Below, piece after piece: positions 31,589 through 45,891 of a stretch of 64,000 nucleotides of DNA. Location of the stretch: NCBI RefSeq assembly GCF_056746865.1, contig NZ_CM163382.1; one strand, given 5' to 3'. Each line of letters starts with the position of its first letter. Position 1 is the stretch's first letter. The notes below the pieces were generated by a model. That model searched no databases. It was given only the letters and a program-made list of their open reading frames with translations, and had not been told where the DNA came from. Both the position numbers and the translations under genes were made by a program.

Positions 31589-34500
31589 ATGTTGTGGGGT
31601 TTTGTTTTTGTATCTTTTATCTCTAAGGAGCTTGCTTTGGGTCAATCAGAATACATTTCATGGGTAAAATGTACTTCCTGGCTAAGTAACTTTGTGAATC
31701 TTAGAGGGTTGAGACAACCGGATGGCCGTCCTCTTTATGAATATCATGCAACCAATGATGAATATACCCAATTAACGCAGCTACTCCGTGCAGTCGGTCA
31801 ATCACAATCTAATATATGTAATAGGGACTTTGCTGCCTGTTTTGTTCTTTTTTGCTCTGAGTGGTACCGCAGGGATTATGAACGGCAATGCGGATGGACG
31901 TGGGACCCTATATATAAAAAAATAGGGATTTCATTCACCGCCACAGAGCTTGGTACTATCGTACCGAAAGGGATGGAAGATTACTGGCTGCGCCCAATTC
32001 GATTTTATGAATCTGAACGACGCAATTTTCTCGGAACATTATTCAGTGAAGGTGGTTTACCTTTCCGGCTACTCAAAGAATCAGACAGTCGCTTTCTGGC
32101 TGTTTTCTCCAGGATCCTTGGACAATATGAGCAAGCAAAGCAGTCAGGTTTTTCTGCCCTTTCGCTGGCAAGAGCTGTCATAGAAAAATCAGCGCTGCCA
32201 ACTGTTTTTAGCGAAGATACCTCTGTAGAACTTATCAGTCATATGGCTGATAACCTCAATTCCTTAGTACTTACTCACAACCTAATAAATCACAAAGAAC
32301 CAGTACAACAGCTTGAGAAGGTTCACCCTACCTGGCGAAGCGAGTTTCCAATACCGTTAGATGATGAAACAGGAACGCATTTTTTGAATGGACTGCTATG
32401 CGCAGCCTCTGTAGAGGCTAAGCCTCGACTACAAAAAAATAAGAGTACGCGTTGCCAATTCTATTGGTCAGAAAAGCATCCAGATGAGCTTAGGGTGATA
32501 GTATCTCTTCCGGACGAAGTTTCCTTTCCTGTAACAAGCGAGCCGTCAACTACGCGCTTTGAACTTGCCATTTGTGAAGATGGTGAGGAAGTCTCTGGCC
32601 TTGGGCCAGCCTATGCTTCTCTGGAAAACAGACAGGCAACAGTTCGATTACGTAAAAGCGAAGTGAGATTTGGCAGGCAAAATCCATCGGCAGGTTTGTC
32701 GTTAGTGGCTCGTGCTGGAGGGATGATTGTTGGGAGCATTAAACTTGATGACAGTGAAATTGCCATTGGTGAGGTGCCGTTAACCTTCATCGTTGATGCA
32801 GATCAATGGCTGTTACAGGGACAGGCTTCTTGCAGTGTGCGAAGCAGCGATGTTCTGATTGTGCTCCCTCGGGATAATAGCAATGTTGCTGGTTTTGATG
32901 GCCAATCGAGGGCAGTAAACGTATTAGGACTAAAAGCACTACCTGTGAAGGGATGTCAGGACGTTACAGTTACAGCAAATGAAACTTATCGGATTCGCAC
33001 CGGAAGAGAACAAATCAGCATCGGAAGGTTTGCTCTAAATGGAAAGCGTGCAAGCTGGGTTTGTCATCCAGATGAAACATTTATTGGTGTACCAAAAGTC
33101 ATTTCTACACTACCGGATATTCAAAGCATTGATGTAACGCGTTACCTGAGCGGAATTTCAATTGAGCAATGTCATATACAAGAGATGCTGGGGGCTCAAT
33201 ATCTTTCTATCCGTAATAGTAAGAATGAAACGCTCTTGCGTCGCAAAATCGGTATTTTGCCTGCTGATTTCAGTATTGAGATAAAAGGTGGAATACACGC
33301 AAATGAAGGCACTATCGTAATCACCACACAGCATCCTTGTGTAGCAAAACTTAAAGATAAAACATTGGAGGCTACACGTAAGCGTACTGAGGGGCGAACA
33401 GAGATACAACTCAAAGCGGAAGGGGTACCTCCGGCATTTATTACATTACAAGTTCTGCCTAATTTGGCGGCTGACCCCATCGATATTGAGTTACCTTTTC
33501 CCGCTAAAGGCTGTCTCGCTCTTGATGTAAACGGACGTCCTCTGGATAAAAACATTACGCTGCATGATCTGCTGGGTTCCAGAGCGTTTCTGTTCTCCAG
33601 AAATGGCGAGCCGACAAGATATACATTGCAGTTGCATTTGCGCTCCGTTAGTGGATTACAGGCATGGCACGAATGGTGTTATACGGCGTTGAGCGATCGT
33701 CCTGTTGAATTGAATCTCTATAGTCTGCGCGAACATATTGAGAACCTGATTTCACTTGAGGCAGGTATTGACCAGGTTGTTGAGATGCGTATTACGGGGG
33801 CGGGTGTGGTCATGGCCTGGCAAATTCGTCGCTATAAATACAGTCTGCGCTATGATTATGAAAAAGAACTATTACTCAGCCAGTCAGTGAACCATCGTGC
33901 TGGACAGATTCCTTCCCCCGTTATCATGCTGTTAAGTGAACCCGAGAGGAAATCCATCCCCTTAGCATCAAGAATGAGCGAGGGAGTGCCTGTCGGTGAA
34001 TATGAGTTGAGCTCAATCGTTAACAAAAATGGACCGTGGTTGGTTGTCCCTAAACCGGGTGAAGAGATGGCTTTTCGTCCCTGCTTCATTCGTGGCGAAT
34101 CTTCGTTACCGGTAGAAGAAAGCAACATCCGCTCATTGCAGAAAGCGACCCAGCTTTTTAATCCACAGGCAGAAGTTAATACCATCACACTGGTTCTCGG
34201 ACAGATGGCTAACGATCCTGCCCATTCCGGCTGGCAATTTATGCGTAGCCTGTACGATCAATTTGGTTATTTACCACTGGCAACCTTTGAAGTATGGCGT
34301 GCACTGGTGCAGCATCCGCAGGCATTGGCAATGTCGCTCTTCAAATTTGAAATGTCAGCAGAGTACCTGAGTCGTATTGAGAATGAGTTCCCTATTCTAT
34401 GGGAGTTTTTCCCCATCTTTGAGATCAAAGCGGCATCTGAGCGTTTCAAATTGTTCCTGAGCCAAAAAGGTGCACCGGAGGAAACCCAGAAATTACTGGT

Positions 34501-34927
34501 TACTAATATGTTTCAACGGCTGGGGCTCGTGTTCCCGACATATGCCGATGAAATTGAGAAATGGTTAAGTAACGGACATCTCCCCCCGTCTATTCCTGAG
34601 TCTTTTGTCCACGTGTGGTATCAGGAGCTTTTACGTGAGCATAGTGAAGCTCAATGGCCAGAGTACGGCAGCAAGCGGCTGCATAGCTGGATGGCATCAC
34701 AAAAAAATCCAGTGATTGGTATTAATCCTGACGCAAATCACCGCTATTCCGTGGCCTTGTTACCCGTCTTCGCTGCAGCTGTGGCAAGCGGAAATGCTTC
34801 TTTTGAATCTGTATTTGACCGTAAACCCGGTGCCGTATTTTTCCTGAGGCAAGTCAGGGATTTCGATTCCCGCTGGTTTAAGGCCATCTTCCAGTGCAGC
34901 CTGTTGCGTTATGTTGCTAAAAAATAA
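31589..34927 (+). CDS. Large protein of unknown function (up to 1112 aa), first gene of a two-gene candidate defence operon; DruH-like by architecture
   Basis: Long uninterrupted ORF ending 12 bp before the helicase gene. No P-loop, nuclease or methylase motif recognised by eye. Coding sequence is visibly AT-richer than its neighbours. An alternative TTG start at 31637 has an AAGGAG RBS 6 nt upstream. From memory this corresponds to a full-length version of the yjiT fragment of K-12. Confidence 0.75.
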   Translation: MLWGFVFVSFISKELALGQSEYISWVKCTSWLSNFVNLRGLRQPDGRPLYEYHATNDEYTQLTQLLRAVGQSQSNICNRDFAACFVLFCSEWYRRDYERQCGWTWDPIYKKIGISFTATELGTIVPKGMEDYWLRPIRFYESERRNFLGTLFSEGGLPFRLLKESDSRFLAVFSRILGQYEQAKQSGFSALSLARAVIEKSALPTVFSEDTSVELISHMADNLNSLVLTHNLINHKEPVQQLEKVHPTWRSEFPIPLDDETGTHFLNGLLCAASVEAKPRLQKNKSTRCQFYWSEKHPDELRVIVSLPDEVSFPVTSEPSTTRFELAICEDGEEVSGLGPAYASLENRQATVRLRKSEVRFGRQNPSAGLSLVARAGGMIVGSIKLDDSEIAIGEVPLTFIVDADQWLLQGQASCSVRSSDVLIVLPRDNSNVAGFDGQSRAVNVLGLKALPVKGCQDVTVTANETYRIRTGREQISIGRFALNGKRASWVCHPDETFIGVPKVISTLPDIQSIDVTRYLSGISIEQCHIQEMLGAQYLSIRNSKNETLLRRKIGILPADFSIEIKGGIHANEGTIVITTQHPCVAKLKDKTLEATRKRTEGRTEIQLKAEGVPPAFITLQVLPNLAADPIDIELPFPAKGCLALDVNGRPLDKNITLHDLLGSRAFLFSRNGEPTRYTLQLHLRSVSGLQAWHEWCYTALSDRPVELNLYSLREHIENLISLEAGIDQVVEMRITGAGVVMAWQIRRYKYSLRYDYEKELLLSQSVNHRAGQIPSPVIMLLSEPERKSIPLASRMSEGVPVGEYELSSIVNKNGPWLVVPKPGEEMAFRPCFIRGESSLPVEESNIRSLQKATQLFNPQAEVNTITLVLGQMANDPAHSGWQFMRSLYDQFGYLPLATFEVWRALVQHPQALAMSLFKFEMSAEYLSRIENEFPILWEFFPIFEIKAASERFKLFLSQKGAPEETQKLLVTNMFQRLGLVFPTYADEIEKWLSNGHLPPSIPESFVHVWYQELLREHSEAQWPEYGSKRLHSWMASQKNPVIGINPDANHRYSVALLPVFAAAVASGNASFESVFDRKPGAVFFLRQVRDFDSRWFKAIFQCSLLRYVAKK

Positions 34928-34939
34928 AAAGGAATAAGG

Positions 34940-37900
34940 ATGACTACACGCTATTTTTCGTCACTTATTGAACAATCGTTGTCTCGTTCAACTGAAGCAA
35001 CGCTCAGTATCATGGGCGTTACCAACCCGCAGCTGCGTGAACATCTCGCGCAACAAATGGGGGCTGATTGTGGGAAACCGGGCTCATTCCTTGCTTCTCC
35101 GGTATTCCAGCAAATGTTTGGCTGGAAGGAGTCAAACCACACGATGCGCAGCCTGACGGAAGGCAACGCATTGTTGAGCAAAGCAGTGGTTGATTCACTG
35201 GATGATCAGAATAATGGCCGGTACCGGTTTGGTGCTGACTGGAGGCCTTTTACGCACCAGTTAGCCAGTTGGAAAGCTTTGCTGGAAAAGAAACATTCAG
35301 TGGTGGTAACCAGTGGTACGGGTTCAGGTAAAACGGAATGTTTTATGGTACCGGTGCTGGAAGATCTTTACCGGGAACTGCATGAAAATGGCAACAATCC
35401 GTTGGTCGGTGTCCGAGCCCTTTTTCTCTATCCATTGAACGCCCTGATTAATTCACAGCGCGAGCGTCTGGATGCCTGGACGCGTGGTTTTGGTACAGGG
35501 ATCCGCTACTGCCTTTACAACGGCAACACCGAAAACCTACACGCTTCGGTAAAAAGCGAACAGGCAAAAAGGCCGAATGAGGTGCTCTCGCGCGAAAAAA
35601 TGCGTGAAGAACCTGCGCCGATTCTGGTGACCAACGGCACGATGCTGGAATATATGATGGTTCGCCAGGTCGACGCCCCGATTATCCAGCAATCTAAAGC
35701 ACAAAAATCACTACGCTGGATTGTACTGGATGAAGCGCATACCTATGTAGGGTCGCAGGCCGCTGAACTGGCGCTCCAGCTGCGTCGTGTGATGACCGCG
35801 TTTGGCGTGACACCAGATGACGTGCGCTTTGTCGCGACCTCTGCGACCATTGCCGGCAGCGACGCTGAAAAGCAGCTGAAAAAATTTCTCTCTGAATTAT
35901 CCGGTATCCCGCAGGAGCGCATCGATGTTCTGGACGGAAGTCGGGTGATTCCTGAACTGGAACCATCCAAAAACGTTTCTGTTCCGTTAGACGAGATAGA
36001 GCAAATACCTGATCTGGATCTAAGAGATAAAAATGATAATAAAATTAAAGGGATAAGTCCTGAGCGCTTTTATGCGCTTACGCATTCCCCCGAAGCGCGT
36101 TACATACGTGAGATGTTGGTCAAACAGCCCAATCCGATGAAGCTGGATGAGATAACAGAGCGGTTACACGTGCTGACAAAACAGCATTACAGCCAGCAGG
36201 AAGTACTGCGTTGGATCGATGTCTGTTCAGGGACTCAACCTAATGCAAAGGATCCCGCATTTCTTAAAGTCAGGGCGCATATCTTCCAGCGTAATACCCA
36301 GGGAATATGGGCTTGTGTTGATAAAGATTGCAGATTAAAGCACGGTACACCGCTCGACAAAGGCTGGCCCTTTGGCTATGTGTATGTGAACCAGCGACAA
36401 AATTGTGACTGTGGAAGCCCTGTATACGAAGTTGCATTCTGTAATGATTGTAATGAGCCTCATCTTCTGGCACGGGACAAAAAGGGCAAACTAGTCCAGT
36501 GGGAAAATAAAGGTGGCGATGAATTCTCTTTGCAGGATGAAGTACCTGTTGAACATGACGCTACAGAAGAAAAAGTCGAAAAAGAGAACAGTTTTCAGCC
36601 TCCGTTGATTATTGCCGCAGGAGAGACCAGCGAGGCAGGTTATACCCTACAACGCCTCGACCGTCAGACGCGCCGTATTGGCGTTATTAACAATGACAGC
36701 ATTCCGCTGATTATTAATGATATTGAACAGGTTTGTAGTGCCAGTGGCTGTGGCTACAGAGGCATGAGTGGGAAACAGCCCTTCCGGCGTGCACTATTAG
36801 GTGGGCCATTTTACGTTACTAATATCGTGCCCACCGTTCTAGAGTATTGTCAGGACTTTACCAGTGATGAAGGCAAAGAGGGCGTCGGACCAGATTCGTT
36901 GCCAGGACGAGGTCGTCGACTCATCACCTTTACAGACAGTCGACAAGGGACAGCCCGAATGGCGGTGCGTATGCAGCAAGAAGCAGAACGCAGTCGCTTA
37001 CGCGGAAGCGTAGTCGAAATTCTCAGCTGGCATCAAAGGACGCAAACGTCTACAGCGCCGAATGCCAATGCCGATCTGGAAAAATTAGCGGCCAGGGCGA
37101 AGCAAGCCCGTGAGCAGGCAGAAGAATATCGAAGCTGGGGAATGCCAGACCAGGCGAAATTGTCACAAGCACAGGCTGAACAGCTTGAACAGGCTTATCA
37201 GGCTGCAACCGGTGGGAAAGCTGCGACTATCCTGGTATCCCGAACCTGGACGGAGATGGTTAACGAGCTTAAAGAGAGAGCCGATATCCGCGGGCCGGTT
37301 CTGCAATATAACCATTATCTTAAGCCTGAAGTGTTTAATGAAAACGGCGGCCCCCTTAAGCTTTCTGAAATGTTGTTGTTCCGGGAATTCATGCGTCGCC
37401 CTAAACGGACTAACAGCCTGGAAACACAGGGGCTGGTTCAGGTTGGTTACCAGGGGCTGGAGAAAATACATAAGAGCCCCTTGCACTGGCAGGAAAAAGG
37501 ATTAACGCTGGATGACTGGCGCGATTTTCTCAAGGTTACGTTGGATCATTACGTTCGCGAGAGCAACTTCACACAGCTGGATGATGAGCTGAAAAACTGG
37601 ATTGGTAGCCGTTTTTCATCAAAATTCGTCCGTAACCCGGAATCAAAAGATCCTGAAGATAATCAGAACAGACGCTGGCCTCAAATTCGTAATGGCAACG
37701 TATCCCATCGTTTAGCGAAGTTGCTGATGCTGGGGGCTGGATTCAAAACCGTCAATGCGGCAACTATTGATATTATCAATACATGGCTGAAAGAAGCATG
37801 GGCCCAACTTACCGGACCGCTTGCAGTACTGAAACCCGATGGCAACCGTTTTTATTTACCGAAAGAGCATATGACTTTTTCTTTAATCACGGATGCCTGG

Positions 37901-40900
37901 ATTTGCCCGGTAACCAATAAAATCCTGGATACGGCTTTTAAAGGCTTAACCCCTTATCTGCCTACCCATATTTCGTTCGAGCATCTTACCCTGGCGCAAT
38001 ATGACACTTTTGTCGCGCAGAAAGTCACAATGCCGGAAATCTGGAAGCTGGATCGTTCACAGGAAGACTACGCAGAGGGTCTGGCAAAAGCACGCGACTG
38101 GGTCAGCCATGATCCGCTGATCGCACAATTGCGGTCGGAAAACGTCTGGACAGACATTAACGATCGTGTCGTGGAAGGCGGCTTCTACTATCGTACTGCC
38201 GAGCACTCTGCCCAGCAGTCGTCAGAACGTCTGCAAAGCTATGAAAAGATGTTCAAGAATGGGCAACTAAATGTTCTCAACTGTTCCACCACCATGGAAA
38301 TGGGGGTTGATATCGGGGGTATTACTGCGGTGGTAATGAACAACGTACCGCCACATCCGGCCAACTATTTACAGCGCGCCGGGCGAGCCGGGCGTAGTAA
38401 AGAATCACGCGCGATCTCTTACACCCTATGTAAAGGTAACCCACACGACCAGCAGGTTTTTGCCAACCCGCTCTGGCCATTTGAAACCATGATCCCGGCA
38501 CCCATGGTCGCGATGAACTCCGCCCGACTGGTGCAACGTCACGTCAATGCATTATTACTGTCCGACTTTTTATGTAACGTTATTGGCGAAACCGATAAAG
38601 AAAAAACCAGCCTCGATAGCCTCTGGTTTTTCGGTGAAGATGACGGGCAGTCAAAATGCGAACGCTTTAAAATCTGGCTGGAACGTCCGGTTCTTGATAT
38701 CGACACGGCGCTGGAACGGCTGGTGAAAGGTACGGCGTTGCATGGTGCAAGAGCCGAATATCTGCGGGATAAAACAATCAACGCGATCACCTTCCTGCAA
38801 CAGCGGTGGCTCTCCGTTTATCGCGATCTCGTGACACAGGAGCGTGAGTCGCAGCCGCAAACGCCTTATCGTAAGCGCATAGAGCTGGAGAAGAAACGGC
38901 ACTGTGGCGAGTATCTGCTGCGCGATCTGGCTGCCAGAACCTTCCTGCCGGGATACGGTTTCCCGACAGATGTAGTGACGTTTGATAACTTCACGATGGA
39001 AGATTATATCCGCGAAAAATCGCAGAAAAGTCGTGATAAAAAGGACCGTGAAGATAACGTTTCCCGTTATAAAGGATTACCTTCCCGTAACCTCGGTGTT
39101 GCCATTCGTGAATATGCACCGGGAGCAGAGATCATCCTTGATGGCCGTGTCTTCCGCTCTGCCGGTGTCTCACTGCACTGGCACAACATTAATGCTGATA
39201 CCAATGAAGCCCAGCGTCTGGATTGCGCCTGGCGCTGTCACAAATGCGGGACCATTGGCTATGAAGAGGGGATGAGCAGTTCCGGGATGCTCTTTTGCTC
39301 CAATAGCGCCTGCGGCGAAAAAATAATCATGGATAATCGCCGTCAGGTGCTGCAGCCTGCCGGGTTTGTCACCGATGCACACGCTCCGGTAACGAACAAT
39401 ATTGAAACCATGAAATTCGTCCCGGTTGTCCCCGCGTGGGTCTTTGTTAAAGCAGAGCCCGTACCGTTGCCTAACCCGCTAATGGGTTATATGGCTTCTG
39501 GGGCTGATGGGCATGTTTTCCAGCAAAGTTTGGGGGAAGGTGGACACGGTTATGCATTGTGTCTGAGCTGTGGCCGTGCTGAGTCGATGCTGAATGAAAA
39601 TGATGCGCCGAAAAGTATGGAAGCTCACTATCCACCGCGTCCGGGTAAAGCGGATCGCGACAGCCAGAATCATCGTCTGATTTGCCCCGGTTCGACGGCA
39701 CTCATGAAGAATGTCACCCTGGGCGCACTGGCGCGTACCGATGTCTTTGAAATGGTTCTGCGCAAACCGCAAAACGGCGAGTATCTGCCAGATAACACAG
39801 AGGAGGGGCGGATTGTTGCCATGACTCTGGCGGTTGCTCTGCGTCAGGCGCTGGCGGGCGTTCTGGGTATCTCCGCCGCAGAACTCGGCTATTCTGTACG
39901 TCCGGTCAGACTGGAGGATGGGCAATCGGTATTAGCCGTACAGCTTTATGATGTGATCAGCGGTGGTGCAGGTTTTGCCTCCAGCGCACCGGTACACATT
40001 GAAGCTATATTGCAGGGAATGGTGAAACAGTTAGGCTGCCGCCATTGTGAGACTGCATGTAGTGAATGCCTGCTTGATTCCCAGACTCGCCACGATCACG
40101 ATTTGCTGGATCGCAAAGCGGCGCTGGCCTGGCTTGGCGATGACTTCACGTATTACATCGGTTTACCGGATGAAGAGACATTCTCGCTGCCGGATGCCCG
40201 CTACTGCCCTGGCGCCATTGGCGATACGATTCGCCGGGCGATTAACGAAGGCGCTGAAAAGCTCACCCTGTGGATGACCGGCGCGCCCAATGAGTGGGAT
40301 TTATACGCACGTCAGTTCCGCGCGGCGGTTCAGAACTATCGGCTAAAAGACAACGTCGAGGTCGATCTTGTTATTCCTACGGGAGTGGATGACCCGGACC
40401 TGTTGCATGAACTATCGCAATTTACTGCGCTGGGTGTGCGGCTGTGCCATGTTGAACAGGATCTGCAATTACCGATCGTTGCCCAGGTCACCTTTACCGA
40501 TCGCGTGATGACGCTGGCCTCTCGCAGCCAGCAGGCAACGATTCCGGGGCCGGAGTGGCACCTGAATGACGAACTGGTGGTGCGTAGTCTCGGTTATAAA
40601 ACGGTAGAACTGAACGAGTTTATTCTGCCGGCTAAAGCCACCAACGCTGTCGAGCGGGTCAAAGACATTCAGATCCACAAACAGTTGAATGGACCACTGT
40701 CGCAGTTTGGGCAACGCTTCTGGGACGTGCTGTTTAACGACCATGAAGAAGCGCAGTCACTGATGAATAACACGCGAATTACCGGCGTTCACTATACCGA
40801 TCGCTATCTGCAAAACCCGGTTGCGCTGGCGTTGTTGGGATCAATTCTGAGACCGCTAAAAACAAAGCTGACCGATGGCGCTGAAGTGACGCTGGATACG

Positions 40901-41284
40901 CTATTTAAAGATAAAGATCGCCCCGGTAACCGGCCTTTCCATGACTGGATGAGCATAGCGGATTTTCAGGATTTCGCTGATCAGTGGTTTGCTGCTGCGC
41001 TGGGCAGGCCGGTAGAACTGACGGTGTTCGACTCGCCGCGCGATATCCCTCACCATCGTAAACTGACGGTGACTTTTGAGGATGGTCAGGTATTGAAGAT
41101 CCGCTTCGATCAGGGGATGGGCTACTGGCGCATCAACTTTTCATCGCAATGGCATTACTTTGATTTCCGCGATGACGTTTCTTTCCAGTTAGTCAAAATG
41201 GCTCAGGCCTGCAAGGAAGGGAATGTCGCCAACAGCGAAGAGAGTTGGGCAACGGATGTGCTGGTGGAGGTGATCGCCTCCTGA
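34940..41284 (+). CDS. Giant (2114 aa) superfamily-2 DEAH-box helicase with Zn-ribbon / DUF1998-like Cys clusters; DruE-like by architecture
   Basis: ATG at 34940 with AAGGA RBS. Walker A GTGSGKTE (35315-35338), motif II IVLDEAH (35720-35740), motif [10 protein letters not shown] (38372-38395), Cys clusters CAWRCHKCG (39224-39247) and [11 protein letters not shown] (40037-40069). Operonic with the upstream 1112-aa gene. Confidence 0.85.
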
Positions 41285-42387: not shown

Positions 42388-43766
42388 TATGAGTCCCCTA
42401 ATAATTTGTTGGTCCATTTCTGTTGTTTATAGGGGTCATCAAAGAAATATTCTTCGAGTAAAGGGGCGATATCCGTCATCACAATTTCATTAAGCCATTG
42501 CGTATCCGGAGAGGTGCCATCTTCCAACCCACAGCAGAAGTAACTATGCCCAATGCGGAATCCTTTCCCAAGGATAGTGGCCTCTTTGCTGATTTCCTGG
42601 TTCAACTCGTTCATTTTTTGGCATAAAGACTCAACAAATGAAGGTTCTGCTTTTTTATTCAGTAAAAAATTCCGGAACTGTGGTGTATCAAAACCTGGCT
42701 CAATATCTATGAAAGAAAATCGTCTGCGTAGGGCATAGTCAACAACGGCCAGAGAGCGATCGGCAGTATTCATTAAACCGATGATATAAACATTCTCCGG
42801 GACATAGAATCGTTCTTCATCGTTTTCGGAGTAGGTTAGGGGAACAGACCAGTTTTCACCTCGTTTATCATGTTCCATTAACATCATCACTTCGCCAAAT
42901 ACTTTACTGAGATTGGCACGATTGATTTCATCTATAATAAAAATATACTTTTTCTCTGGCTGCTCTTTAGCTTGCTGACAAAAATTGTAAAATATGCCGT
43001 CTTTACGTCGGAAGCCGACGCCATTCGGACGATAGCCCTGTATAAAATCCTCATAGCTATAGGATTGATGGAACTGAACCATATTGACGCGTTGCGGAGC
43101 CTTTTCTCCTGTCAGCAAGTAAGCCAGACGGCGTGCAACAAAGGTTTTTCCAACGCCGGGCGGCCCCTGGAGGATAATATTTTTTTTGATGGTTAATCGT
43201 TTGAGTATCGTCTCTATTGTGGTTTCAGGGATAAACAAATCATTTAACGCATCTTCCAGACAGTATGATTCAGTTTTTGACATAGGTGGAATAACACTCT
43301 TGCCAGAATTAAATATTAATTTATAGTCGTTGATTATGTTGTCCAGCATAGAGGCAAATCGGGTGTAATCAATACCCTGTGAGACTTTTTGGGAACAGGC
43401 GTAATAGGACTGTCCGTATTTTTTAGGATATACACCCGAAGTTGCCTGAAAATACTCTGCGATTGTTTTAGGTATGTCTGAAGAGAACTGCCATTGGGCA
43501 TGTGGTTCATTCGTGTCGCTTATACCATAAGCCAAAACCAACTCATCAAAATCTTTATAATAGAGAATAACGGGATATATACCGTTAGAAGCTTCCTGAC
43601 CTTCTCCAAGAAATGCAAACCAGGGAATAGACGTAAAATTACCATAACCGAAACTCAATTTTACTCGCAGGTTACGGTAAGACGTTGGATAATCTTTAGT
43701 GGATTGCGAACGTTGTTGCTGTGCTTGCTTAATAAATTTTTCAATCCAGGGTTGAATAGATTCCAT
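42387..43766 (-). CDS. mcrB: 5-methylcytosine-specific restriction enzyme McrBC, GTPase/DNA-binding subunit McrB (AAA+)
   Basis: 459 aa from MESIQPWIEKFIKQAQQQRSQ; Walker A GPPGVGKT and AAA+ motifs; markedly AT-rich coding sequence. Confidence 0.9.
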   Translation of the reverse strand: MESIQPWIEKFIKQAQQQRSQSTKDYPTSYRNLRVKLSFGYGNFTSIPWFAFLGEGQEASNGIYPVILYYKDFDELVLAYGISDTNEPHAQWQFSSDIPKTIAEYFQATSGVYPKKYGQSYYACSQKVSQGIDYTRFASMLDNIINDYKLIFNSGKSVIPPMSKTESYCLEDALNDLFIPETTIETILKRLTIKKNIILQGPPGVGKTFVARRLAYLLTGEKAPQRVNMVQFHQSYSYEDFIQGYRPNGVGFRRKDGIFYNFCQQAKEQPEKKYIFIIDEINRANLSKVFGEVMMLMEHDKRGENWSVPLTYSENDEERFYVPENVYIIGLMNTADRSLAVVDYALRRRFSFIDIEPGFDTPQFRNFLLNKKAEPSFVESLCQKMNELNQEISKEATILGKGFRIGHSYFCCGLEDGTSPDTQWLNEIVMTDIAPLLEEYFFDDPYKQQKWTNKLLGDS

Positions 43767-43927
43767 AAGATATGCCTTCCTCATTGCTAAGCCTCTATTA
43801 TCGCTTTCGCAACGTACTGAAACAATAGATTTTTACTGCAAAATCAGACTGGTAAATATTTACTGAGGGGGAAAGTTTCTATTGAGTCAGTGGAAGGCTC
43901 CCGGTGGTTAACCGGGAGTAAACGCTG

Positions 43928-44269
43928 TTACGCGACTTTCTGTTTACCGGCAATCACTCCAATAAACGCCTGCACCTGCTTTTGTTTACGCGCCGACAGT
44001 TTGCACACCTGGCGTAGCGACTGCATCAGTTCGCTCTCCTCGGCGGCGGGTGGTTGGGCGGTGAGGACAATACAGCCTTCCATCACTTTGACATCTACCG
44101 CCGTGCCAGTGGCAAAACCGGCGGCTTCCAGCCACTGACCTTTCAGGGTGATGGCGGGAATACGGCTGTAATCCGGGTAGCGACTCGCATAACCGACGGT
44201 GACATGACGGTTATTTGCCGGGGAGACTTCTGCTTCGAACGGTTGTGCAATAGAATGCGTGTCAGTCAT
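43928..44269 (-). CDS. symE: SOS-induced toxin-like protein SymE (type I toxin-antitoxin, AbrB-fold)
   Basis: 113 aa from [34 protein letters not shown]; located between mcrB and hsdS; the track ORF is extended upstream. Confidence 0.8.
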
Positions 44270-44338
44270 AACTGCTATTCTCCAGGAATAGTGATTGTGA
44301 TTAGCGATGCGGGTGTGTTGGCGCACATCCGCACCGCG
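44262..44338 (+). ncRNA. symR: Candidate antisense sRNA SymR (RyjC) overlapping the symE 5' end; coordinates approximate
   Basis: Established knowledge that a roughly 77-nt cis-antisense RNA overlaps the symE ribosome-binding site and start codon. The exact ends cannot be fixed from sequence; a 9-bp stem hairpin at 44309-44332 lies within the region. Confidence 0.25.
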
Positions 44339-44346
44339 CTAAATAC

Positions 44347-44362
44347 CTGTATATATCATCAG
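44347..44362. promoter_or_regulatory. Candidate LexA (SOS) box in the symE promoter
   Basis: CTGTATATATCATCAG matches the CTGT-N8-ACAG consensus with one mismatch, about 80 bp upstream of the symE start. Confidence 0.5.
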
Positions 44363-44496
44363 TAAATATGGGGAAAGTCCAGCTAAAAATAGAATAAAAT
44401 GGGCAATTTCTGGAATGATTTAAATATATTTATGTGGGTTATGATTGGCGTGAAATAATAAAAAGCGCACCGGAAAGGTGCGCCAGAAAATAATGT

Positions 44497-45891
44497 TCAG
44501 GATTTTTTACGTGAGGCTTTTTTACCCCCGCTAGCTGCGCGTTCAGCTTTGATTTTTTCCAGCAACGCGGCGGCGCTGTTTTCTCCGCTGATCAAATCCG
44601 GGTTTTCGGCCCGCCACTGGGCGGTAAGTTCACCACGGAACGCTTTTGCCAGGATGGATTGCGTCAGGTTGTTGACGCGGGCTAAGGCGTTGTTGACCTG
44701 TTTTTCTATGGTGTCGGCGTAGGCGAAGAGTTGCTCGACGCGGCGAACGATTTCGGCTTGTTCTTTTACTGGAGGTAATAAAACAACTTGGGATTTGATA
44801 TCTTTTCCTGAAATACCTTTTTGACCAGAAGTTGTTTTCACGCAGTTCATCATTGCATTTCGTGCTGAGGGGGATGAAAAAAATATTTCGATATATTCTG
44901 GTAAAGCATCTTTGGTTAATCGAGCTCGAATAAGTTTATCAGGATATAGCAAATTTTGATGTTGTAATTTTTTCAATAACCCACAAACACCAACAAATTC
45001 TAAACTTCCGTTATAGCGAGTAAATAAAAGATCTCCATCTTGTAATTTGTGGCGGTTTAGTTCACTTTCTGAACATTCTAGAAACCGAATATCGTTTTGA
45101 TCTACATGGCCAGCACGTACAGAACTAATGCGTAGTATTGGATGACCAACACCACTTTCATTTGGCTTTGATGAAAGACCATTACGTAATTCAGTTAAGA
45201 TAGATTCAAAATTTAACTTCTTAAATACAGAATGTTGCGGCTCAAAATTACGCCATTTTTCTGTCAATTTTCCATTAACTGCGCCCCCCAATACCGCTTG
45301 ACGAAAACGTTTCAGGATTTGTGGGATTTGCTCAAAACGTGCTTTGGTGCTGTCTACCTGCGCCAGCAGCGTATCGAGTTTTTCAGCGATGATTTTTTGT
45401 TCGGCAAGTGGTGGGATTGGTATATTTATCAAATCAAAGCTTGCCGGCTTAATATTATTAATATTTGCACCAGCAGAAAGTGATGAAATTTTGTTTCGAT
45501 AAAGAGAAGATTTTGTGAAATGAGCAATAAAACCAGAAAATATAAGTTTTTCAGGACGTAATACACCGCAAAATGCGCCGAAACTACATTCAAATGGTAG
45601 ATGCTGATGTGCGGATTTACCAACTACGGATTTGCTCCCTGATGACATTGCAATAACAATATCTTCAGGAGATATTTTTTGATTTTCTTTAACAAGATTT
45701 TTAGGAACAAAAACCAAGTCCGTAGTATCAAACTTGCCATTCTGAATATTGTTCGCACGGATAAGAGGCAAATAATCATCTTTTAGATAATTTATTGCCT
45801 GCTCTTTTTTATACGTTACTCCTCGGATTAGAGTTGTGACCGTAGATACTGGGGCGATAACCCACCCCTCCGGCAATTTCCCCGCACTCAT
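44497..45891 (-). CDS. hsdS: Type I restriction-modification specificity subunit HsdS
   Basis: 464 aa with two target-recognition domains separated and followed by conserved helical repeats; start ATG overlaps the hsdM stop (ATGA). The N-terminus MSAGKLPEGWVIAPVSTV is consistent with the EcoKI-family HsdS as I recall it. Confidence 0.88.
   Translation of the reverse strand: MSAGKLPEGWVIAPVSTVTTLIRGVTYKKEQAINYLKDDYLPLIRANNIQNGKFDTTDLVFVPKNLVKENQKISPEDIVIAMSSGSKSVVGKSAHQHLPFECSFGAFCGVLRPEKLIFSGFIAHFTKSSLYRNKISSLSAGANINNIKPASFDLINIPIPPLAEQKIIAEKLDTLLAQVDSTKARFEQIPQILKRFRQAVLGGAVNGKLTEKWRNFEPQHSVFKKLNFESILTELRNGLSSKPNESGVGHPILRISSVRAGHVDQNDIRFLECSESELNRHKLQDGDLLFTRYNGSLEFVGVCGLLKKLQHQNLLYPDKLIRARLTKDALPEYIEIFFSSPSARNAMMNCVKTTSGQKGISGKDIKSQVVLLPPVKEQAEIVRRVEQLFAYADTIEKQVNNALARVNNLTQSILAKAFRGELTAQWRAENPDLISGENSAAALLEKIKAERAASGGKKASRKKS

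Follow-up and report, generated by a model that had tools for sequence, protein, structure and literature searches.

The closest described counterpart of the locus considered here is the symE/SymR pair of Escherichia coli K-12, in which symE is also known as yjiW or b4347 and SymR as RyjC, and which was characterised by Kawano, Aravind and Storz in 2007. SymE is toxic when overproduced, and RNA decay accompanies the overproduction; the toxicity was ascribed to RNA cleavage, with the recycling of damaged RNA as the proposed role of the protein (Kawano 2007, PMC1891008). For the LexA site of yjiW/symE, Kawano 2007 cites Fernandez De Henestrosa 2000; the gene is induced by mitomycin C (Kawano 2007, PMC1891008). 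A 2024 transcriptome study gives symE a heterology index of 7.9 and finds its expression to be LexA-dependent, and despite this dependence AZT caused no significant induction of the gene in the data set of that study (PMC11228462). Without SymR, SymE protein rises seven-fold and its mRNA modestly, about three-fold (PMC4147584), and this large rise in protein with a modest rise in mRNA implies that SymR acts mainly by blocking translation. SymR has been detected on Northern blots, a mutant in its -10 element raises SymE (PMC1891008), its repression is independent of RNase III and Hfq (Kawano 2007, PMC1891008), and it is present in roughly 10-fold excess even after induction (PMC1891008, PMC4147584). 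The protein itself is degraded by Lon (Kawano 2007, PMC1891008). The pairs tisB/IstR-1 and dinQ/AgrB share with symE/SymR a LexA-repressed toxin gene and a constitutive small RNA that prevents translation of the toxin (PMC4147584).

We analysed a stretch of 64,000 nucleotides, hereafter the window, in which symE had been recognised from the sequence in an initial annotation. The locus is very probably the characterised symE/SymR of E. coli, that is, an atypical type I toxin-antitoxin-like pair that belongs to the SOS regulon and is held down by three layers of repression. The layout that had been proposed for it, with a LexA operator upstream of symE and a cis-antisense RNA over the 5' UTR, matches that of the published locus. 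As a discovery it carries little weight, being a textbook locus that was characterised in 2007 and is present in Rfam, Pfam, NCBIfam and lists of SOS genes.

The symE coding sequence lies at 43928-44269 on the minus strand, with its ATG at 44269 and its stop codon TAA at 43930-43928, and encodes a protein of 113 amino acids, as read from the list of open reading frames, Pfam and NCBIfam. Membership of the family is given both by Pfam SymE_toxin PF08845 (6.4e-22, 77.8 bits with a cut-off of 29) and by the NCBIfam equivalog NF010128 (1.8e-68, 227.6 bits with a cut-off of 132, over residues 1-112 of 113), and the gene is also annotated in the records of K-12 and FDAARGOS_497. Over positions 43800-44500 the window shows 100% identity with E. 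coli K-12 and with further chromosomes of the species; among 5426 complete E. coli genomes, 2872 contain a related copy of the region, in most cases at 90-95% identity. These matches bear out the call of symE. At 113 residues and not hydrophobic, the protein is not the small hydrophobic membrane-active peptide that is a mark of type I toxins, and it has been described as atypical for this class (PMC4147584).

The position of symE between mcrBC and hsdS, also pointed out in the initial annotation, is that of K-12, where the record gives the order hsdR-hsdM-hsdS-symE-mcrB-mcrC on one strand; the window has the identical order on the minus strand. Outside the symE locus K-12 differs from the window. 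Both yjiT and an open reading frame for a DEAD/DEAH-box helicase of 2114 amino acids (34940-41284) are intact in the window (31637-41284) and in FDAARGOS_497, which is collinear with it at 100% identity, whereas both are pseudogenes in K-12, the helicase being annotated there as pseudogene fragments. The intact yjiT and helicase therefore mark the window as a K-12-like immigration control region of another E. coli.

SymR and its conserved structure

The antisense RNA SymR could be placed end to end, as 77 nt on the plus strand at 44264-44340, by a full-length covariance-model match to Rfam RF01809 (95.3 bits with a gathering score of 61, E = 8e-19, model positions 1-77 of 77), which is the sole Rfam family matched in the whole 64-kb window. 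The view that the boundaries of SymR could not be set from sequence alone was thus too cautious, and the comparison with the published RNA that had been suggested along with it came out in agreement, the 77 nt obtained from homology being the published length. Although symE CDS features are given in the RefSeq (PGAP) records inspected, a symR gene is given in none of them, and a query over SymR returned no annotated feature. The practical value of the placement is that it allows an exact annotation of SymR, 44264-44340.

SymR overlaps the symE coding sequence by 6 nt (44264-44269), the start codon included, and spans nearly all of the symE 5' UTR together with the Shine-Dalgarno (SD) sequence GGAG (44280-44283, minus strand), which was read from sequence and fold and lies 10 nt before the ATG. 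Because the two genes overlap in position, SymR is perfectly cis-complementary to the symE mRNA, as is expected of the RNA antitoxin in a type I toxin-antitoxin pair. The -10 element of the symR promoter, read from the sequence as TAGAAT (44251-44256, plus strand), falls within the coding region of symE; a gap of 7 nt separates it from the 5' end of SymR, and it shows no variation in any of seven aligned loci. A silent change in symE, CATTCT to CACTCC, abolished SymR (Kawano 2007, PMC1891008), and it maps to 44253-44258 of the window.

The predicted fold of the 77-nt RNA consists of two hairpins (-37.8 kcal/mol, z = -5.3). The symE strand over the same interval folds at -28.4 kcal/mol, and a stronger fold on the SymR strand is what its several G-U pairs would lead one to expect. 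The anti-SD sequence sits in the apical loop of helix 1, and the 3' stem-loop, helix 2, occupies 44304-44337 (plus strand; 14 pairs in the fold). A hairpin at 44309-44332, noted earlier as lying in the part of the 5' UTR that SymR would cover, proved to be real; it is the core of helix 2, in the 3' half of SymR.

Conservation of the fold was examined in an alignment of seven loci from three genera: the window, four divergent E. coli, Citrobacter portucalensis and Kluyvera georgiana. Outside the window the Rfam match was again full-length in all six, at 83-94 bits. In helix 2, both partners have changed in a compensatory manner at 6 of the 14 pairs, and 96.9% of cells are paired; helix 1 is almost invariant and uninformative on covariation, its loop sequence being variable among the seven loci and the symE strand keeping a purine-rich SD in 7 of 7. 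The covariation score was 0.171, compared with 0.098 in shuffled alignments (none of 500 reached 0.171) and at most 0.086 in slid controls, and over the whole SymR structure 93% of cells were paired, compared with 24-49% in the slid controls. By this comparative evidence the predicted two-hairpin structure is conserved, with covariation contributed by helix 2.

A search of genome contigs with a SymR-core pattern, GAATAGNGANNGTGANNAGCG, gave 72 matches where about 140 were expected by chance; with 16 specified bases the pattern is too unspecific, and its matches are mostly chance. Among them, Rfam confirmed only those in Citrobacter (L056) and Kluyvera (L066), and loci in Enterobacter (L068) and Dickeya (L025) were rejected as SymR because they fell below the Rfam threshold. 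One of the E. coli loci, that of strain 884 (L005:3313-3389), has the tip of the SymR 3' hairpin inverted: in place of the apical 12 nt, GTGTTGGCGCAC, equivalent to window positions 44315-44326, this allele has precisely the reverse complement, GTGCGCCAACAC, such that the stem is kept and the loop sequence swapped. At 99% identity or more, a 66-nt query across this inversion has matches in 420 complete genomes of E. coli, so the inverted tip is a common allele.

The LexA operator and the symE promoter region

A candidate LexA operator (SOS box), ACCTGTATATATCATCAGTA, lies at 44345-44364, 76-95 nt upstream of the symE ATG; the symE strand reads TACTGATGATATATACAGGT. Its core of the form CTG-N10-CAG, CTGTATATATCATCAG, is at 44347-44362. 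The initial annotation had proposed a LexA box at this site on the grounds that it is one mismatch away from the consensus. The site stood up and the argument did not, since the window contains 18 instances of CTGT-N8-ACAG with one mismatch where 17.0 are expected, which is the chance rate. For this reason the degenerate pattern was replaced by a scan with a weight matrix, which was symmetric and derived from 16 E. coli LexA boxes known from the literature, with that of symE excluded. The scan gave ACCTGTATATATCATCAGTA a score of 17.97 bits, the top of the 64 kb, with the runner-up at 12.91 bits; the training boxes themselves score 13.0-26.5 bits, a range in which the symE site falls. The lesson for operator prediction is that being one mismatch from a consensus is worthless on its own and convinces only when joined to a full-length weight matrix, position and conservation.

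The runner-up is a LexA-like 20-mer, TTCTGCTTTTTTATTCAGTA, inside mcrB (42645-42664, 12.9 bits). It is most likely a chance match, because the best site of a shuffled window reaches the same score on average.

It could be argued that the LexA-like sequence at symE is likewise a chance AT-rich palindrome, and the nearby hairpin a structural or terminator element without regulatory meaning. Such an argument can draw on the chance rate of the degenerate pattern and on the shuffled windows, 4 of 200 of which reach 17.97 bits somewhere along their length. The symE site, however, is the best of the whole window and scores as known operators do, and its place is kept: each of the seven loci, across the three genera, has a CTG-N10-CAG sequence scoring 12.3-18.0 bits shortly beyond the 3' end of SymR. 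Its offset from that end is +5 in six of the loci, the window included, and +11 in Kluyvera, owing to a 6-nt insertion. The four divergent E. coli carry a CTGG variant where the K-12 operator has CTGT. The hairpin, for its part, covaries and is contained in a full-length Rfam match to SymR, and the LexA dependence of the gene is published (PMC1891008, PMC11228462). We give the chance explanation next to no credence; the published data effectively refute it. In its sequence, its promoter-proximal position and its conservation, the site has the predicted properties of an SOS operator.

The 3' end of SymR, at 44340, borders on this operator. In every aligned locus the region of the end (44337-44345) runs into AAATACC and not into a U-tract. 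With no U-tract, and with the operator beginning 5 nt further on, formation of the SymR 3' end may be unconventional. A roadblock by bound LexA was considered as the source of the end and rejected, since we estimate that a stalled polymerase would leave ends about 15-20 nt upstream of 44345 and not at 44340; the operator spacing in Kluyvera, which differs by 6 nt, also disfavours it.

The upstream part of the symE promoter region extends over 44365-44400 on the minus strand and contains a block, AGTCCAG (44376-44382), that is conserved in the seven-locus alignment. On the symE strand this block includes TGGACT, which we infer to be a possible -35 element. In most E. coli genomes the conserved stretch ends at about 44400 (query position 601). 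When 43800-44520 was scanned for the sigma-70 consensus, no promoter of symE or symR passed the threshold, and the best guess for symE, TGGACT-17-TGATAT, matches at only 7 of 12 positions and was not assigned. The exact promoter hexamers, and with them an exact overlap of the LexA operator with the symE -10, are accordingly put forward as inferred features.

On the upstream side, hsdS ends at 44497 and is followed directly by an intrinsic terminator found in a terminator scan (44464-44484, minus strand), a GC-rich hairpin and then UUUUUAUUAUU. Judged by its sequence, this terminator should insulate symE from hsd transcription. On the downstream side, a strong hairpin, CUCCCGGUUAACCACCGGGAG, is present just past the symE stop codon (43898-43918, minus strand); it is without a U-tract, and the terminator scan found nothing there. 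Because of the missing U-tract, SOS-induced symE transcripts might read into mcrBC, which is on the same strand.

Repression layers, SymE toxicity and the restriction neighbourhood

In the proposed mechanism, a LexA dimer bound at 44345-44364 in the symE promoter region would keep symE off, and DNA damage would turn it on through RecA-stimulated self-cleavage of LexA. As a second layer SymR, transcribed from a promoter in the first symE codons, would pair with the 5' UTR, the SD sequence and the start codon, and would thereby mainly block translation, with a modest reduction of the mRNA. The third layer would be degradation of SymE by Lon, and SymE that nevertheless accumulates would stop growth. 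To this scheme our analysis contributes the gene, the boundaries and conserved structure of SymR, and the quality, position and conservation of the operator sequence; the dependence on LexA, the repression by SymR, the action of Lon and the toxicity are taken from the literature.

How SymE is toxic is a matter of debate, and the description of the gene product as an RNA-cleaving toxin, adopted in the initial annotation, has the 2007 model and the RefSeq name behind it and is contested by newer work. An otherwise identical architecture can be envisaged in which SymE is a true endoribonuclease, similar to MazF or RelE, that cleaves and recycles damaged RNAs after DNA damage. The product name in NF010128 and in RefSeq is 'endoribonuclease SymE', and the activity is repeated in reviews (PMC4147584). 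Cleavage by purified protein, though, is not described in the texts examined, and the decay of RNA observed in 2007 may have been an indirect result of growth arrest. Moreover, as summarised in a 2024 review (PMC11894785), Thompson 2022 found no endoribonuclease activity on overexpression of SymE, and instead non-specific binding to DNA and extreme compaction of the nucleoid. We consider a true endoribonuclease unlikely. On the strength of this literature, as far as the review's summary conveys it, non-specific DNA binding with condensation of the nucleoid is the more likely mechanism, and the model behind the name 'endoribonuclease SymE' is now disputed.

The neighbourhood of symE raises the further idea that symE/SymR is functionally coupled to the restriction systems, whether as a backup or abortive-infection-like defence, as an addiction module of the hsd island, or as a means of protecting the chromosome during SOS. 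In all ten E. coli loci inspected, the gene that immediately precedes symE, in the same orientation, is a type I restriction-modification (R-M) gene (hsdS in seven, hsdR in two and a remnant of hsdS cut by IS1 in one), so the linkage is real. Downstream, the same ten loci have mcrB, a GmrSD-type gene or yjiS next to symE. SymE-family genes are also common in a Pseudomonas defence hotspot, for which the authors speculate on a role in defence or addiction, and an association with R-M systems and mobile elements was noted in the original description (Kawano 2007, PMC1891008).

Several observations nonetheless weigh against coupling. SymE matched no PADLOC defence model (0 families at E <= 0.01), an intrinsic terminator stands between hsdS and symE, and transcription of symE starts from a separate promoter under LexA control. 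One strain has lost its hsd operon and kept symE, and in Kluyvera the genes downstream of symE are metabolic, in a locus that ends on the promoter side. Co-location in a hotspot is sufficient to explain the linkage, and this is the published view, in which mobile or selfish modules gather in one place (Kawano 2007, PMC1891008). The suggestion that SymE backs up restriction during DNA damage accordingly finds no support, given the published view and the lack of a PADLOC match. Overall, we judge it very unlikely that symE/SymR is coupled to the restriction systems in any of these forms, and functional coupling of SymE to restriction has at best a small chance of being right. We know of no phenotype for such coupling.

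The strain that has lost hsd is E. coli GSH8M-2 (L081:3039-4132); it keeps symE, SymR and the promoter block, and all that is left of its hsd operon is an 87-nt remnant of hsdS beside an IS1.

A related reading is that symE/SymR keeps its fixed place immediately after type I hsd operons because of a real functional link rather than co-location in a hotspot, and to this we assign only a slender probability. In one version, SymE might condense the nucleoid and thereby shield the chromosome, or halt the cell, while SOS modulates restriction; in another, the link might consist of SOS-driven read-through from symE into mcrBC.

Comparison with described systems

Beyond its closest counterpart, the locus is usefully set beside a protein fold and two other SOS-controlled pairs. 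Homology of SymE to the swapped-hairpin fold of MazE/AbrB has been reported (PMC1891008, PMC11894785), and this fold fits the reported binding to DNA; MazE/AbrB proteins, however, act as antitoxins or transcription factors, and SymE is the toxin of its pair. Quick tests did not reproduce the likeness: a lenient Pfam scan (E <= 10) of SymE gave nothing beyond SymE_toxin, BLASTP against MazE gave no alignment, the best matches of a SymE profile among PDB sequences were noise (none below E = 0.7), and an AlphaFold2 model built with a 7-sequence alignment as input had a pLDDT of 42.

The pairs tisB/IstR-1 and dinQ/AgrB differ from symE/SymR in the nature of their toxins, which are small hydrophobic membrane peptides, whereas SymE is a soluble protein of 113 amino acids (PMC4147584). 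They also differ in part in the arrangement of the RNA: IstR-1 is encoded beside tisB and not opposite to it (PMC1891008), whereas SymR is a true cis-antisense RNA over the SD sequence and the start codon. With the K-12 pair of Kawano, Aravind and Storz the agreement is complete over 43800-44500, where the sequence is the same: the two have in common the SymE protein, an antisense RNA of 77 nt, the LexA site, the -10 element targeted by the published mutation, and mcrB and hsdS as neighbours, and within the locus they do not differ.
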